15,387 bases of DNA, taken from Nitrospirota bacterium. GTDB taxonomy: Bacteria > Nitrospirota > JACRHJ01. The DNA is taken from assembly GCA_963845245.1 (NCBI GenBank), contig CAWJRJ010000008.1, forward strand, positions 1 to 15,387, read 5' to 3'. Positions 1 through 15,150 of this stretch are shown piece by piece. The notes under the pieces were generated by a model, which was not told the DNA's origin, did no database searches, and worked only from the letters and a program-made list of their open reading frames with translations. Made by a program: the position numbers and the translations under genes. Each line of letters opens with the position of its first letter. Positions within the stretch are counted from its first letter, which is position 1.

Positions 1-53
1 TCGGAGTTGGAGTCGGAGTTGGAGGCGGAGTTCGTGTTGGAGGTGGTGCTGGG

Positions 54-1411
54 GTGGTGACCGAAGCCGGCGTTGGCGTGCCGGTCGCATCGTTTAACAA
101 GCCAGAGGCCAGGCCTGCCGCAGTATCCGGCCCCATCGGCGAGAGGTACGTCCTTGATAACGGCATGGTGCTGCTTGTTAAGGAGAACCACGCCCTGCCG
201 GTGGTCACCGTGAGCATGATAATAAAGGCCGGGTCCGTGATGGAACCCCCAGATAAGGCGGGGCTCGCGCACCTGACCGCCGGGCTCCTCACAAAGGGTG
301 CGGACAAGATGTCCGCGAACGACATAAGCGAGGCGATAGATTTCGTCGGCGGCTCGCTCTCCACCGGCGGCTCGACCGACTACGCAACCGCCAACCTGAC
401 GGTGCTGAAGAAGGACCTGGATACCGGCTTTTCTCTTCTGGCTAAGGTGCTGACAAAACCGGCCTTCGAGCAGGCCGAGATAGACAGGCTGAAGAAGGCC
501 ATCAAGGCGGGCATCATACGCGAAGAGCAGGAGCCGGAGTCGGTCGCATCAAAGGCCTTCGCCAAGGCTGTATACGGCGCGGACAACCCGTATGGCCGTC
601 CGGTCGAGGGGACCGTAGAGACCATAGACAAGATCACGAGGAGACGACATAAAGGCGTTCCATGACAAATACTATGCGCCCAACAACTGCATAATGGCCG
701 TCGTCGGCGATATCACCGCGGCGGAGGCAAAAAACTTCGTAATGTCGTACCTGAGCGAATGGCCGAAGAAAGATGTAGCAACACCGGTGATCCCCGATAC
801 GCCACAGCCAACCGGCGTACAGATGGTCCAGATAGACAGGGACATCACACAGGCGAACATCCTGATGGGCCACCCGGCGGTGAACCGCGAGAACCCCGAC
901 TATTATAAGACTTTACGTGATGAACTATATCCTGGGCGGAGGCGGGTTCGCCTCAAGAATTCTGGACAAGGTCCGCGACGACATGGGCCTTGCTTACAGC
1001 GCATACAGCTACTTCATCGCAAACAAGTACCAGGGCTGCTATATGGCGGGCCTTGAGACGAAGAACCAGTCAGCAAAGACGGCGATAGACGAGACGCTGA
1101 AGATAATCGAGAACATGCGCAAGGAGCCTGTCACGGACAAGGAACTCCAGGACGCGAAGGACTACATAACCGGCAGCTTCCCCAGGAAGATGGACACGAA
1201 CTCAAAGATCGCCGAACTCCTCACCCAGGTGGAGTTCTATAACCTCGGCCTGAACTACTTCGAGATGTACGAGCGCGAGATTACCAAGGTAACGAAGGAG
1301 GACGTGCTTGAGGTCGCGAAGAAGTACCTGCACCCGGATAATATCTACATCATCGAGGTGGCTAATCTGAAGGAGGCGGGGGGAGAAAAGCAGGAGCAGA
1401 AGCCAAAGTAA
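54..1411 (+). CDS. M16 family (pitrilysin/insulinase-like) peptidase, probably the non-catalytic subunit; split by two +1 frameshifts (~641, ~910); true start uncertain
   Basis: Joined ORFs 54-665, 694-1056 and 917-1411 give typical M16 motifs: LDNGMVLLVKENHALPVV, GLAHLTAGLLTKGA (no intact HxxEH), NPYGRPVEGT, YYAPNNCIMAVVGD, NYILGGGGFASR..VRDDMGLAYS. Removing one base at each junction restores KITRDDIKAFHDKYY and YYKLYVMNYILG. Confidence 0.9.
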
Positions 1412-8681: not shown

Positions 8682-8970
8682 ATGAAGATCACGGTTGAAG
8701 AAGTAGAACACGTAGCGAAGCTCTCCAGGCTCACGTTCAGCCCGGAGGAGACGGCGGTTTTCACAAAGCAGCTCGACAATATCCTGGGGTATGTCGACAA
8801 GCTGAACGAACTAGACACCACCGGCATCGAGCCGACATCCCACGTGCTGCCCGATCAAGAACGTGTTCAAGGTCGATGAGCCCAGGCCGTCCCTTACCCC
8901 GGACGAGGCGCTTGCAAACGCGCCGGAGCGTTCCGGTGACTTTTACAGGGTGCCGAAGATAATTGAATAA
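8682..8970 (+). CDS. gatC: Asp/Glu-tRNA amidotransferase subunit C; one +1 frameshift near 8852
   Basis: MKITVEEVEHVAKLSRL..QLDNILGYVDKLNELDTTGIEPTSH. After removing one base it continues IKNVFKVDEPRPSLTPDEALANAPERSGDFYRVPKIIE*. RBS AGGAGG. Confidence 0.95.
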
Positions 8971-8972
8971 CC

Positions 8973-9057
8973 ACTTTCTTTTGAAAGAAAGTAGCAAAGA
9001 AAACCGTTCGTTTCTTTGTTCTTTTCTTTCACGTGAAAGAAAAGAACCAGAAGAAAG
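8973..9057. repeat. Cluster of pyrimidine/purine palindromes (REP-like element) between gatC and panD
   Basis: ACTTTCTTT-TG-AAAGAAAGT (8973-8992), CAAAGAAA..TTTCTTTG (8995-9018), and the perfect 30-bp palindrome GTTCTTTTCTTTCACGTGAAAGAAAAGAAC (9018-9047). Confidence 0.75.
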
Positions 9058-9067
9058 CGGTCTTAAC

Positions 9068-9434
9068 ATGTTTCGTATAATGCTTACGGTCAAAGATACA
9101 CCGGGCCACTGTTACAGAATCGAACCTCGAGTACGAGGGAAGCCTGACGCTCGACCAGGACCTGATGGACGCGGCGGGTATGCTCCCGTACGAGCAGGTG
9201 AATGTGTCGAACTTGAATAACGGCGAGAGGTTCATGACATACGTCCTGCCCGGCGGGCGCGGCTCCGGCATGGTATGCCTGAACGGCCCCACCGCCCGCA
9301 AGGGCGCGGTCGGCGACAAGGTAATCATATTCTGCTACGAGGGATACGGCAACGAAGAGTTGAAGAACTTCAAGCCGATAGTGGTGAAGGTGGACGAAAA
9401 AAACAAGATAATAAAATCTTCCGGAGGATTTTAG
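9068..9434 (+). CDS. panD: Aspartate 1-decarboxylase proenzyme; one +1 frameshift near 9086
   Basis: Corrected reading [69 protein letters not shown] includes the G-S autocleavage site and the TY motif. Confidence 0.93.
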
Positions 9435-9435
9435 A

Positions 9436-10901
9436 TTGGACCTGTACAAACTTACAATCCACGAACTCAGGGACCTCATAGCCAAAAAAGAGGTAACCGC
9501 GAAGGACGCGGCCTTCTCCTACACACGCAGGATAGGCGCAGCTTGAGTCCGACATAAAGGCATACGTCACGCTCACGGCGGACGCCACCATCGCCATGGC
9601 GGATGAAGCGGACAAGGCCATCGCCGAAGGCAAGACTCGGGCCGCTCACCGGCATCCCGATGGCCATAAAAGACAACATGTGCACGAAGGGCATCAAGGA
9701 CTACCTGCGCGTCGAAGATACTCGCAGACTTCGTCCCGCCGTACGAGTCCACCGTCACCGCAAGGCTGAAGGACGCGGGCTACGTGATGCTCGGCAAGAC
9801 GAACATGGACGAGTTCGCGATGGGCTCATCCACCGAGAACTCGGCATTCGGCCCGACGCACAACCCGTGGGACCTAGAGCAGGATACCCGGCGGCTCGTC
9901 GGGCGGCTCGGCGGCGGCTGTCGCGGCAGACCTCTGCGCGGCCTCGCTCGGCTCTGACACCGGCGGCTCCATACGCCAGCCCGCGGCATGCTGCGGCGTG
10001 GTCGGCCTGAAGCCCACTTACGGGCGCGTGTCGAGGTTCGGGCTTGTCGCCTTCGCCTCCTCGCTCGACCAGATCGGCCCCATCACAAAGGACGTCGAGG
10101 ACTGCGCGATAGTCATGAACGTCATCGGCGGGCACGACCCGGCCGACTCCACATCCGCAAACGTCGCGATGCCGGACTTCACGAAGAACCTGAAAGACGG
10201 CATAAAGGGCCTGAAGATCGGGATACCCAAGGAGTACATGGTTGCGGGCGGCATCGACCACGAGGTCTACACCGCCATCCAGGAGTCCATAAACGTGATG
10301 AAGGGCATGGGCGCGGAGGTCGTGGAGGTTACGCTTCCGCACACAGACTATGCCGTCGCGACTTATTACATACTGGCCACGTCCGAGGCAAGCTCGCAAC
10401 CTCGCGCGCTACGACGGCGTGAAGTACGGATTCCGCGCGGAGAACCCGGTCGACCTTCTGGACATGTACAAGCAGTCCCGCTCGCAGGGCTTCGGGCCTG
10501 AGGTGAAGCGCAGGATAATGCTCGGCACATACGCGCTCTCTTCCGGCTATTACGACGCATACTACAAGAAGGCACAGCAGGCGCGCACGCTTATCAAGCG
10601 CGACTTCGACGAGGCGTTCAAGCAGGTGGACATTATCGTGACGCCGACCGCGCCGACCGCCGCTTTCAAGCTTGGCGAGAAGACGGACGACCCGCTCCAG
10701 ATGTACCTGAGCGACATCTTCACCATCAGCATGAACCTGGCGGGCATACCGGGGCTGTCGCTCCCATGCGGGCTGACACGCGAGAGGCTCCCCATCGGGT
10801 TGCAGATACTCGGGCGGCACTTCGACGAGGAGACGGTACTCCGCGCGGCGTATTCATACGAGCAGGCGACCGACTGGCACACGAGAAAGCCGACGCTGTG
10901 A
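9436..10901 (+). CDS. gatA: Asp/Glu-tRNA amidotransferase subunit A; five +1 frameshifts (~9541, ~9635, ~9699, ~9880, ~10397)
   Basis: TTG start after GGAGG ([11 protein letters not shown]). Pieces give [78 protein letters not shown] and [22 protein letters not shown]. Ends DWHTRKPTL*. Confidence 0.96.
10873..10901 (+). repeat. Direct repeat copy 1 (3' end of gatA)
   Basis: ACTGGCACACGAGAAAGCCGACGCTGTGA; 24/29 identical to 11482-11510. Confidence 0.85.
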
Positions 10902-10908
10902 TACTCTT

Positions 10909-11235
10909 ATGAGTGGAAAACTCAATGAATATATTGCTGGCTTGAGGAGGGCTGTTCAGGCCGATAGGGTTCTAATAAGAAAACATGCCGACGAGAGAGC
11001 AGGCAAAAGGAAAATTGCGTTTTCCTCGATAATAGATGTAATACTGACGGGTGAGGTGATAGAGCATTATCCGGATACTGAACCCTTTCCGGCCTGCCTG
11101 CTCATGAAGCATATAGAGCATGACAAACCGCTCTACGTAGTTTGTAGTTTTGATGGTGAGTATTGTTATGTAATAACTGTCCATTGGCTTGATCCTGACA
11201 AATGGAAAGACCCATGGACAAGGAGGCTGAAATGA
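10909..11235 (+). CDS. DUF4258-like protein (putative RelE-fold toxin)
   Basis: 108 aa with HADER...I....TGEVIEHYPD..PFPACLL....KPLYVVC....VITV..PDKW...TRR. ATGA overlap with the downstream zinc-finger gene. Confidence 0.8.
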   Translation: MSGKLNEYIAGLRRAVQADRVLIRKHADERAGKRKIAFSSIIDVILTGEVIEHYPDTEPFPACLLMKHIEHDKPLYVVCSFDGEYCYVITVHWLDPDKWKDPWTRRLK

Positions 11236-11477
11236 AGTGTCCACTCTGTGGCGGCAAGATGAAAAAAGACCACATTGATTACGAAAAACATTGGGGCCGC
11301 AAGATATATAGTTTTAAAAAAGTACCGGCTTATGTATGCATAAGTTGCGGAGATATTCTTTTGACAGGTGAAGGCGCTAAAGCCATCGAGCATATTATTT
11401 CCAGCAATGAGATGCCCGAGGAATATATAGAAGTCCCCGTTTATTCGTTGGATAAACACCTTCAGAAAGTATCTTAG
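11232..11477 (+). CDS. YgiT-type zinc-finger protein (MqsA N-terminal-like, putative antitoxin)
   Basis: ATG at 11232 after AGGAGG. MKCPLCGGKM...KKVPAYVCISCGD has two CxxC pairs; 81 aa, no HTH. Confidence 0.85.
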   Translation: MKCPLCGGKMKKDHIDYEKHWGRKIYSFKKVPAYVCISCGDILLTGEGAKAIEHIISSNEMPEEYIEVPVYSLDKHLQKVS

Positions 11478-11481
11478 CTTA

Positions 11482-11510
11482 ACTGGCATACGAGAAAGCC
11501 GACATTATAA
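11482..11510 (+). repeat. Direct repeat copy 2 (orphan duplicate of the gatA 3' end)
   Basis: ACTGGCATACGAGAAAGCCGACATTATAA translates WHTRKPTL*, the same as the gatA C-terminus. Confidence 0.85.
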
Positions 11511-11531
11511 GATGTTTGAAAGGGGTCATAT

Positions 11532-11723
11532 ATGAGCAGGGATAGCGAAGGTTATTATGCCCATGTTATGTGGCACCCAACAGATATAAAAGAATTAAGA
11601 CCCAAATGGTCTCTTAAGAAGTGTGAGAAGTGGCTTGCCGAGCACGAGGAGCATATTTCCGAAAGAGCTGTTGAGCGCGGGTGGGAAGTTATCGAGTACT
11701 TATTAGACGGCGAAAACAAATGA
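11532..11723 (+). CDS. Small hypothetical protein (63 aa, Trp- and Glu-rich)
   Basis: RBS-like AAGGGGT, ATG start, and a stop overlapping the next ATG (ATGA 11720-11723). Confidence 0.7.
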   Translation: MSRDSEGYYAHVMWHPTDIKELRPKWSLKKCEKWLAEHEEHISERAVERGWEVIEYLLDGENK

Positions 11724-13697
11724 ACCGCGATTACTATTCAAATTCGATTGCTCTTTTTGTAAAGTCCGACGTAGATGAAATACTCGGCAAGCTAGCGCTA
11801 AATAGCGATTTTGATATAGGTCAGGAACAACGCAACGCGTGGGTAGAGGAAATACGCATTCTACAAAAAGTTTTGACTCCTTATTTTGGAACAATTTATT
11901 TTGAATACTCTATCCCGAGAATGGGGAAACGAATCGACGTTCTATTAATTATAGGGCCGGCAATTTTCATTCTTGAATTTAAAGTTGGAGATAAAGATTT
12001 TTCTGCGAGTGCGATAGATCAAGTTTGGGACTATGCCCTAGACTTAAAGAATTTTCATAGCTCAAGTCATGAGCATTTTATTGCCCCAATTTTAATTGCA
12101 ACCAAAGCAAAAGATATTACACCAACCATAGCAATGACTACACAAAACGATAAATTACTATTTCCTATTAAGTCTAATTTAGAAGTACTGGGAAACGTAA
12201 TAACCGGGGTCTTATCATTTATTGATGGAGTTGATATCGATGCGAAAGAATGGGAACTAGGACAATATTGTCCTACACCTACCATCATTGAAGCAGCTAT
12301 GGCGTCTGTACAATGGACATTCCGTAGAAAATATTTCACGAAGTGATGCCGGAGCAATTAATCTAACTAAAACATCCGAAGCCGTTTCGGAAATTATAGA
12401 ATATTCAAAAAATAACTCCCAAAAATCTATTTGTTTTGTGACGGGTGTCCCAGGCGCAGGAAAAACATTGGTCGGGCTTAACATCGCGACAAAGCACATT
12501 GACAAAGATAACGATTTATATAGTGTTTTCCTTTCTGGTAATGGCCCGCTTGTTGCCATTTTAAGAGAAGCTTTGACTCGTGACAAGGTACGTCACGAAA
12601 AAGAAAATGGCAATAAACTTAGAAAAAATGAAGCAATGAGCGAAGTTAAGATGTTTATACAAAATGTTCACAACTTCAGAGACGATTGTCTTACAGATAA
12701 AAATCAGCCCATTGAACATGTTGCGCTATTTGATGAGGCGCAACGAGCTTGGGACTTACAGCAAACAGTGAATTTCATGCATCGTAAAAAGAAGATGCCG
12801 AATTTCAATCAGTCTGAGCCGGAGTTTCTTATTTCATGTCTTGATCGTCACCCAGATTGGGCAGTGGTTGTTTGCTTGGTTGGCGGCGGTCAAGAAATTA
12901 ATACTGGCGAAGCGGGGATTAGCGAATGGATCGAGTGCCTCAATCGTTCATTTCCGGAATGGAATATTTATATATCCTCTAGGCTCACTGATAGTGAATA
13001 TGGAGCAGGCACAATTTTAGAACATATTGAAGCTCGTGACAATGTATTCAAAAATGACGAATTGCACTTGTCGGTATCAATGCGGTCATTTCGTGCAGAG
13101 AATGTTTCTTTGTTGATTAAACAACTATTAGATTTGGATGATGTAAAGGCGCGAGTCACATTATCTGATATAGGAAGCAAGTATCAGATTGTTATTACTA
13201 GCGATATTTCAAAAGCAAAGCAGTGGCTAAAGAAACAAGCCCGAGGCTCGGAGCGTTATGGAATTGTAGTTTCATCACAAGCTCAGAGATTAAAACCACA
13301 TGCGATAGATGTGAAATCTCCAATGGATCCAATACATTGGTTTTTAGATAAGAAAGACGACGTTCGATCATCATATTATCTTGAAGATGTAGCTACTGAA
13401 TTCCACGTGCAAGGACTTGAATTAGATTGGGCTTGTGTAATGTGGGATGCTGACCTCAGATATACAAATGATGGATGGGATTATCGTTCTTTCACAGGAA
13501 ATAAATGGAACTACATTAAAAAACTTGAACGACAAATTTACTTAAAAAATGCTTATAGAGTTTTACTCACACGTGCTAGGCAAGGAATGGTTATAGTAGT
13601 TCCACCCGGCGATTCCGAAGACCCTACTCGTAATCCAGATTTCTATAGGCCAACATTCAATTATTTACAAAACATTGGATTTGAAGTAATACACTAA
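11720..13697 (+). CDS. DUF2075-family (Schlafen-group-3-like) SF1 helicase with an N-terminal PD-(D/E)XK-like domain; one +1 frameshift near 12305
   Basis: N-terminus [15 protein letters not shown]...ILEFKVG...[13 protein letters not shown]; Walker A GVPGAGKT; Walker [43 protein letters not shown]. The junction corrects to IEAAMALYNGHSV. About 658 aa. Confidence 0.85.
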
Positions 13698-13724: not shown

Positions 13725-15150
13725 ATGAAATACGAAGCCGTAATCGGCCTTGAGGTTCACGCACAGCTAAAGACGAAGTCGAAGATATTCTGCGGGTGCA
13801 GCACGAAGTTCGGCTCCGGCCCGAACTCCCAGACCTGCCCGGTCTGCATCGGGATGCCGGGCGTGCTGCCGGTGCTGAACAAGACCGCGATGGACTACAT
13901 CATAAAGACCGGCCTTGCGATGGGCTGCACGATAGCCCCGTTCTCCCGGTTCGCCCGCAAGAACTACTTCTACCCCGACCTCCCCAAGGGCTACCAGATA
14001 TCCCAGTTCGAGCATCCGGTCTGCCTGGGCGGAGGGATCGAGTTCCTGCTGGACGGGCAGTTGAAGAAGGTGGGGCTTACCCGTATACACCTGGAAGAGG
14101 ACGCGGGCAAGAACATGCACGAGGGCATCGAGGGCGCGTCCCACGTTGACCTGAACCGCACCGGCGTCCCGCTGATGGAGATTGTATCGGAGCCGGACAT
14201 CAGAAGCGCCGACGAGGCCGCCGAGTACATGCGCAAGCTGCGCGCGATACTCCGGTACATCGACGTCTGCGACGGGAACATGGAGGAGGGCTCGCTTCGC
14301 TGCGACGCGAACGTGTCCATGCGGCCCGTAGGCCAGAAGGAGTTCGGCACTCGCGCCGAGCTTAAGAACATGAACTCCTTCAAGAACGTCGCAAAGGCGA
14401 TCGAGTACGAGATAAAGCGCCAGACGCAGGTGCTTGGAGGACGGCGGCAGGGTGATACAGGAGTCGCGGCTATGGGATGCGAACCTCAACATAACCCAGT
14501 CGATGCGCGGCAAGGAAGAGGCGCACGACTACCGCTACTTCCCCGAACCTGACCTGGTGCCTGTCGAGGTGAACAAGGAATGGCTGGACGAGCTTCGGGC
14601 ACAGTTGCCGGAACTGCCGGACGCGAAACGCGAGCGGTTCGTGAGCGAGTACGGCATCCCGGAATACGACGCGATGGTGCTGACGGAGTCCATCGCCCTG
14701 GCTGATTATTATGAAGGCGTCGCAAAACTCTCAGACCAGCCCAAGGTCGCGTCCAACTGGGTAATGGGCGACGTAATGCGCGAACTGAAGAACGACGGCA
14801 TCGAGATTGAACAGTGCCCGCTTGAGCCCGCACGGCTTGCCGGGATGCTGAAGCTGATCGGTGACGGTACGATATCCGGCAAGATCGCCAAGACCGTCTT
14901 CGAGGAGATATACCGTTCAGGCAAGGACGCCGACACGGTTGTGAAGGAGAAGGGGCTCGTTCAGATAACCGACGAGGGCGCCATCGAGAAGGTGATCGAC
15001 GAGATCATCGCAAAAAACCCCGGCAACGTCGAGGCATACAGGGGCGGCAAGGTCGCGCTCATGGGCTTCTTCGTGGGCCAGGTGATGAAGGCCACCGGCG
15101 GCAAGGCGAACCCTGCGAAGGTGAACGAGCTTTTAAAGAAGAAACTATGA
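13725..15150 (+). CDS. gatB: Asp/Glu-tRNA amidotransferase subunit B; one +1 frameshift near 14436
   Basis: [91 protein letters not shown] and [17 protein letters not shown]. Confidence 0.97.

Follow-up and report, generated by a model that had tools for sequence, protein, structure and literature searches.

In the Nitrospirota metagenome-assembled genome (MAG) examined here, the end of gatA, the gene for Glu-tRNA(Gln) amidotransferase A, recurs as a second, slightly different copy 609 bases downstream. Both copies lie on a contig of 15,387 bases, which was analysed as a whole and is referred to as the window (contig C8). The source MAG, G000, comprises 2.88 Mb in 37 contigs and is 90% complete with 5.2% contamination; relatives of the same family (among them G001-G004 and G006-G010) and the metagenome contig L051 were used for comparison. 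We call the copy at the end of gatA the working tail and the second one the orphan tail. Between them lies an insert of 580 bases (10902-11481) with two small genes (module A), and a second pair of genes (module B) follows before gatB:

9436..10901, + strand: gatA (Glu-tRNA(Gln) amidotransferase A), TTG start, in three frames; Pfam Amidase on the last 183 amino acids (E 9.3e-42); tblastn with the G006 gatA covers 9436-10898 in frames 1, 2 and 3
10873..10901, + strand: working gatA tail, repeat copy 1 (..D WHTRKPTL*), from the sequence and a repeat search
10902..13697, + strand: low-GC island, the entire gatA-gatB gap; GC 0.35-0.44 against about 0.60 in the flanks, from the composition profile
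10909..11235, + strand: DUF4258 toxin-like gene, module A; Pfam PF14076, E 1.3e-16, 61 bits against a cut-off of 25
11232..11477, + strand: YgiT/MqsA-like zinc-finger antitoxin candidate, module A; weak Pfam matches below the cut-offs
11482..11510, + strand: orphan gatA tail, repeat copy 2, in frame with the zinc-finger open reading frame (ORF) and behind the TAG stop of that ORF, from the sequence and a repeat search
11532..11723, + strand: orf63, a small gene without a Pfam or PADLOC match, first gene of module B; conserved beside the helicase in G002 (contig C59)
11720..13697, + strand: PDC-S41 / Schlafen-group-3 (DUF2075) helicase, a defence candidate, module B; Pfam PF09848 (SLFN-g3_helicase), E 2.2e-86; frame break near 12305, two frames in tblastn
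13725..15150, + strand: gatB, from Pfam GatB_N and GatB_Yqey and from tblastn; frame break near 14440

The gatA tail repeat and the low-GC island

The working end of gatA reads ...GAC TGG CAC ACG AGA AAG CCG ACG CTG TGA and ends at 10901. The orphan copy, ACTGGCATACGAGAAAGCCGACATTATAA, begins four bases (CTTA) past the TAG stop of the zinc-finger ORF (11475-11477). The copies agree at 24 of 29 bases overall and at 22 of the 27 coding bases, both read WHTRKPTL*, and all five differences are G/C to A/T transitions at silent positions, TGA versus TAA included. The pair is listed as family D8 in the repeat search. A 22-base core with up to three mismatches has two sites in the window, a number that none of 200 dinucleotide shuffles reached (mean 0.00). 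The repeat is confirmed as real and non-random, and the preliminary description of this DNA was right that the 3' end of gatA is duplicated with silent changes only, on either side of the DUF4258/zinc-finger module. The direct repeats that flank the insert include a gene end, a feature of elements that target gene 3' ends.

The same description had taken the toxin-antitoxin (TA) module as the inserted unit. The module is indeed there, but the low-GC island to which it belongs is larger, 2.8 kb, and takes up all of the gap between gatA and gatB. Because GC falls at 10902 and stays low until about 13700, the whole gap is foreign; gatB starts 27 bases past the helicase stop. The gene order is gatC (8682-8879), panD (9090-9434), gatA, island and gatB. 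In this arrangement panD, for aspartate decarboxylase, sits between gatC and gatA (window 8682-9434).

Module A has the hallmarks of a TA pair, with two small co-directional genes, a stop/start overlap, a match to a toxin family and conservation of the pair in L051. The ATG of the zinc-finger gene overlaps the toxin stop (ATGA, 11232-11235), and an alternative in-frame ATG is present at 11214. The zinc-finger ORF remains below the Pfam cut-offs, with 18.1 bits against 30 for MqsA_antitoxin and 20.4 against 24 for DUF6487. On these sequence features, the two genes are a candidate type II TA pair. In module B the orf63 stop overlaps the start of the helicase, which belongs to a 657-amino-acid class; the intact orthologue in G002 matches the PADLOC candidate PDC-S41 over positions 1-652 of 657 (E 3.5e-292).

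Silent-variant gene tails at six loci

The preliminary description had suggested looking for silent-variant tail duplicates at other housekeeping genes of this genome, and five further loci were found. The last 30 bases of 5206 long ORF ends in G000 were compared with the following 6 kb at a threshold of at least 24 of 30 matches, with reversed and shuffled tails as controls. There were 121 raw matches and none in the controls. One hundred rows belonged to an 81-base tandem array on contig C13 and 16 to paralogues, long repeats or spurious frames, which left five loci; the sixth came from a separate seed-based scan. Matches on C18 (tandem paralogues), C21, C6, C3 and C25 were dropped on inspection as paralogues or spurious frames. 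The tandem array is long, with about 40 copies of its unit, and lies at the start of its contig (C13:1-3410). The six loci, with the cargo between the two tails and the gene after the orphan tail, are:

gatA (C8): DUF4258 and zinc finger; after the orphan tail orf63 and the helicase
livF-like ABC ATPase (C30:52671-54117): VapB and PIN; after the orphan tail a 159-amino-acid gene, GC 0.33
HD-domain gene (C13:39561-40760): HicB and HicA; after the orphan tail a DUF6602 nuclease-like gene
smc (C2:47096-50370): BrnT and CopG antitoxin; after the orphan tail an ankyrin protein
clpB (C16:180034-182345): 642-amino-acid ankyrin protein on the opposite strand
flavin reductase (C16:131161-132771): 455-amino-acid protein

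The repeats measure 29 bases at gatA and smc, 62-64 at livF, about 49-70 at the HD-domain gene, at least 39 with the terminator at clpB and 42 at the flavin reductase gene (27-75 over the six), and the inserts 0.58-2.3 kb. No core shared by the six repeats was seen by eye. The clpB repeat continues through the terminator hairpin, with a conserved stem and a differing loop, the pattern that two working alleles should show. Four of the six loci carry TA pairs, each from a different TA family, and the TA pair always adjoins the working gene. A read-through idea was rejected, as orphan tail and upstream antitoxin share a reading frame at two of the four TA loci, which is about chance.

Over 246 coding bases at the six loci, working and orphan copies differ by 26 synonymous and 5 non-synonymous changes, which gives a synonymous divergence (dS) of 0.86, a non-synonymous divergence (dN) of 0.026 and a dN/dS of about 0.03. 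Under random substitution the expected share of synonymous changes is about 0.2, or 0.28-0.41 with transitions only, and none of 200,000 simulations reached 26. Duplication followed by neutral drift of the orphan predicts a share of 0.34, or 0.52-0.62 with a strong transition bias; the binomial P of 26 synonymous changes among 31 is then 2e-8, or 2e-4 to 8e-3 with the bias. Since the nulls of random change and of duplication followed by neutral decay are both rejected, the copies appear to be the ends of two alleles that had both long evolved as working genes and were joined recently. This bears out the earlier proposal that both copies were once selected as real gatA ends and that the repeat is not a fresh target-site duplication. 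The partner lineage would be close kin, because both copies share residues that are found only in G000 among the family genomes, namely TRKPTL in gatA, PAHELLENEQVKK in livF and EAEELAEV in smc.

The preliminary description had also noted that the window encodes no integrase, and this extends to all six loci in searches with PF00589 and PF00239. In the Pfam profile scan no recombinase domain was found in the 21 window ORFs. Three intact tyrosine recombinase genes and two fragments are present in G000 (PF00589 on C21, C18, C17, C13:4800 and C19), none of them at any of the six loci, and a serine recombinase (PF00239) was not found in this 90% complete genome.

Cargo and orphan tails in related genomes

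The length and content of the gap between gatA and gatB vary among the relatives:

G009: 14 bases, empty
G007: 19 bases, empty
G006: 699 bases, unrelated cargo
G001: 891 bases, a 291-amino-acid gene, GC 0.32
G004: 936 bases, a 281-amino-acid protein that begins with a YgiT-like zinc finger
G010: 1263 bases, a 409-amino-acid ATPase
G008: 1320 bases, modules A and B, decayed
G002: 1503 bases, unrelated cargo

Judged by these gaps, gatA|gatB is a cargo hot spot in this family. The start of the G004 protein (L008 571-1416) resembles the YgiT zinc finger of the window antitoxin. The intervals livF|bioD (empty in G010, G003 and G009) and smc|glcD (empty in G001 and G006) are likewise variable hot spots in the family. 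At all three intervals the relatives with empty sites are of other genera than G000.

G008, which belongs to another genus, has modules A and B at gatA|gatB in the same order as G000. Its toxin is about 70% identical, and a deletion that begins at the fourth zinc-finger codon reaches into the helicase, the remnants of which carry stops and yet are about 85% identical, compared with about 80% for gatA and gatB. Just upstream of its gatB lies a degenerate orphan gatA tail (L039 2157-2237) that matches its own working tail at 15 of 17 bases; the spacer to which it is fused has the same sequence as the one at the empty G009 site. A weaker copy, with 13 of 17 bases, is found in G001. The orphan tails of G008 and G001 look older, with an indel and changed residues such as later decay should bring about. 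Within 1.5 kb of gatA no orphan gatA tail was found in the 27 usable of 29 relative loci, and longer stretches gave only the decayed copy of G008 and the weaker one of G001. In a phylum-wide DNA search with the stretch from the TA pair through the orphan tail to orf63, four of 401 genomes matched (G000, G002 with the orf63 part only, G008 with the toxin part only, and one with a 41-base match), and the junction did not turn up a second time; the 401 genomes included no sister lineage of this genus.

Within the gatA tail of G001 the assembly is interrupted, exactly past ...GACTGGCAT, and contigs C26 and C7 (L034, L032) overlap by 127 bases. This is the mark of an assembly-graph fork within the tail and hints at strain variants diverging there. 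The preliminary description had named the absence of cargo variation and of breakpoints at the repeat in relatives as grounds for giving up its proposal. Variation in cargo, with gaps of 14-1503 bases, the decayed orphan tail that G008 keeps beside gatB, and the G001 break were all found, and on this count the proposal is not refuted.

Both modules occur elsewhere. In L051 (2037-2602) the module A family lies between valS and nadC, with 74% identity over 490 bases and a toxin protein 66% identical to the DUF4258 protein of the window. Its spacers are short, 20 bases after one neighbouring gene and about 10 before the next, and no orphan gatA-like tail stands beside the pair at this site. For module B (window 11519-13691) the counterpart is a low-GC stretch between accD and folC in G002 (L045, contig C59), with 84.7% identity over 2173 bases; there the module spans from the orf63 ribosome site, directly after the accD stop, to a helicase stop that overlaps the folC start. 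No gatA-like tail was found beside module B at this site either, and accD|folC is empty in G000 and G007. In G002, orf63 and the PDC-S41 helicase form a tight, gene-only low-GC unit of 2.17 kb between two core genes. Because each module is found between other housekeeping genes without a gatA tail, the orphan tail seems to belong to the locus and not to the cargo or to a cassette. The earlier idea of a 609-bp unit that moves as a cassette with its own gatA tail is therefore unsupported.

Origin of the orphan tails and comparison with known systems

We consider it fairly probable that the second gatA tail is the scar of a recombination event, homologous at one end and illegitimate at the other, between two diverged working alleles, and not part of a self-mobile cassette. 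The family would keep a varying cargo, for instance TA pairs and defence candidates, at gatA|gatB. Two related lineages within one genus-level group would each have supplied a version of the locus, one with the TA pair and the other with orf63 and the PDC-S41 helicase, and the two would have been joined. One side of the join would lie in ordinary homology within a flanking housekeeping gene, and the other, placed 29 bases ahead of a gatA stop codon, would be illegitimate or rest on very short homology. The product would consist of gatA, the working tail, the TA pair, the other allele's tail left stranded, cargo that is older or arrived with it, and gatB. The mechanism may have been one-ended (homology-facilitated illegitimate) or of the Campbell type. 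We lean slightly towards cargo and a new tail having come in and pushed the old tail downstream, because such an event brings a selectable gain; the G008 orphan, still joined to the native spacer, agrees with this direction as well. As four of the six scars flank TA pairs and the TA pair is always next to the working gene, the pattern suggests, but does not show, that addictive TA pairs bias the survivors towards adding DNA over replacing it.

Several observations weigh against recombination between two alleles as the origin. The longest identical run in the 29-base gatA repeat is 14 bases, which would be too short for an ordinary RecA crossover and leaves a non-homologous join to be supposed. 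At all four TA loci the join lies 0-5 bases past the TA stop, tighter than a random illegitimate join predicts. Unusual codon states sit in the orphan copies and not in the working ones; the working gatA copy has the G002 codons at CAC, ACG and CTG, and the working livF copy has AAC and GGG, as in six of six alignable relatives. The orphan tails of the six loci also trend AT-richer, with 20 G/C-to-A/T against 9 A/T-to-G/C changes (p 0.06). The odd codons and the AT trend fit an imported orphan as well as a displaced one, and an AT-richer orphan would fit import together with the low-GC gene behind it. No explanation fully fits both the AT trend and codon states unseen in relatives.

The distribution of the scars is a further difficulty. 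No orphan tails were found at livF or smc in the relatives' loci compared, and the same scan of the complete relative G007 (14 contigs, 2,106,539 bases, 4574 ORF ends) gave nine raw matches, all of them tandem paralogues or repeats, and no orphan tail. Hence, the scar density in G000 is lineage- or assembly-specific. Repair genes were considered as its cause and rejected: Ku was not found in G000 and was found in 6 of 11 relatives, MutS was present in 12 of 12, and this explains nothing.

The quality of the contig counts on the same side. Indel-type frame breaks spread gatA over three frames and gatB and the helicase over two each in tblastn. As gatA and gatB are essential genes, the breaks in the window genes are probably sequence errors in the contig and not gene decay. 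Public sequencing runs were searched for the window stretch; the best share of sampled words was 0.10 and no run contained the stretch. Read-derived pieces at 80% likeness were short only, among them a 151-base contig that matches 10961-11111 exactly and two that fall on module B, with none spanning a junction; neither a circle nor an empty-site read was found among them. No read and no second assembly confirming the junction between the TA pair and the tail was found. A peptidase M16 gene at window 3-1411 is likewise split across frames, and contig C2 of the same assembly is exactly 65,536 bases long, which may reflect cutting by software.

A true target duplication is an unlikely alternative. 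Here the cargo would have been inserted with a 29-75-base copy of the resident gene end, and the working copy would later have been overwritten by homologous recombination with a sister allele. Such a class is described for restriction-modification systems, with repeats often over the stop codon and no mobility genes, and its published repeats are 93-100% identical (PMC2853133, Tables 2 and 3), compared with a dS of 0.86 here. The G000-specific residues shared by both copies would agree with a duplication of this kind. However, overwriting up to the stop codon six times requires a crossover at the edge of homology each time, and the nulls of duplication followed by decay are rejected.

Quite unlikely is a site-specific integration, in which the TA unit, or the remnant of a larger element, would have been inserted with a replacement end by a trans-acting tyrosine or serine recombinase at an att site in the end of gatA. 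Direct repeats at gene 3' ends that differ by silent changes only are known from e14 in icd, and the tyrosine recombinase genes elsewhere in G000 could be thought to act in trans. Against this stand the lack of a recombinase in the window or at the six loci, the small size of the inserts and the repeats without a visible common core, as well as the occurrence of the TA family and of module B at other genes without a gatA tail.

It is very unlikely that the arrangement is an assembly artefact, in which each hot spot of the MAG would be strung together from two strain haplotypes that differ in their cargo (X in one, Y in the other). The error-prone contig, the contamination, the lack of read support in public runs and the presence of all six scars in one MAG and none in G007 could be read in this way. 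The independent MAG G008, however, carries modules A and B at this site too, in unchanged order and together with an orphan tail of its own, and we know of no assembler behaviour that would make junctions 0-5 bases past a stop six times. Highly improbable, finally, is a functional element, in which nucleotide-level selection would keep the orphan tails, for instance because they serve the next gene as promoter, processing site or coupling signal, while the working copy drifts silently: it would also yield silent-only differences, and a gene does follow directly after the orphan tail at every TA locus, but it predicts the opposite of the odd codons in the orphan and the family-wide codons in the working copy (gatA against G002; livF against six of six relatives), and the older orphans of G008 and G001 are decaying.

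Recombination between two working alleles could be extended to a general role of gene ends, which is tentative and on the whole doubtful. Housekeeping-gene ends in this lineage would then be landing pads for recombinase-free addition of cassettes, with sister-lineage DNA recombining through one flanking core gene, and where an addictive TA pair is present or arrives only the products that add cargo, and not those that replace it, would survive. If true, ordered arrays (gene, TA pair, old tail, defence gene) with silent-variant orphan tails as datable scars would result, and six scars against none in the complete relative would speak for a process that is active and specific to the lineage, as opposed to rare accidents.

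It is poorly understood by what route TA pairs and small defence genes reach core-gene hot spots in the absence of integrases or transposases. Silent-variant orphan tails would be direct, datable footprints of two working alleles from different lineages meeting at one site, and one uncultured Nitrospirota genome with six scars, four of them around TA pairs, offers a compact test set. For annotation, short extra gene ends beside cargo may be scars and should not be taken for att sites of missing elements.

In E. coli, prophage e14 and phage 21 give icd a replacement 3' end, and the old end stays behind as a silent-variant pseudo-tail. Those elements have their own integrase and a fixed att site, whereas none was found here, at six different sites with inserts of 0.6-2.3 kb; unlike integrase-driven 3'-end elements in general, the TA family and module B also occur elsewhere without the same att core. 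In a Campbell-type insertion-duplication, a single crossover of a circle gives homology, insert and homology, with the gene kept. It differs from the present case in needing a circular donor and workable homology, for which the gatA repeat offers only 14 identical bases in a row. An integron cassette array differs as well: no integrase is present at the locus, the repeated sequence is the tail of a gene, and the repeats at the other five loci are unrelated to it.

Closer in kind is insertion with long target duplication (Nobusato et al. 2000; Furuta et al. 2010, PMC2853133), in which restriction-modification units without a mobility gene lie between direct repeats that often span a stop codon, the repeat being required to exceed 30 bp and to derive from the target. 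The likeness lies in addictive or defence units between target-derived repeats of tens of bases with the target gene intact, in inserts below 20 kb without mobility domains (the 580-base TA insert, the 2.8-kb island) and in the empty gatA|gatB sites of relatives, here G009 and G007, which are of other genera. It differs in that the cargo here consists of TA pairs, that the copies are not near-identical, and that the gatA repeat, with 29 bases, lies just under the 30-bp criterion.

In the C-terminal displacement arrays of Rhs, CdiA and type VI secretion system (T6SS) effector-immunity loci, for which illegitimate recombination facilitated by homology has been proposed (Kirchberger et al. 2017, PMC5361080), an orphan 3' fragment likewise lies downstream of the working gene. 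In those arrays a new 3' part with cargo enters beside a conserved gene and older ends are pushed downstream, and a recombinase is not needed. The displaced tips described there are different toxin domains with immunity genes, whereas here both tails read WHTRKPTL* and the cargo is unrelated to gatA. A limited literature search listed no paper on TA pairs that lie between duplicated gene ends. Scars of this kind are known, and what is new is that a single genome has them at six sites, that four different TA families are linked with them and that both modules occur elsewhere as travellers without a tail.

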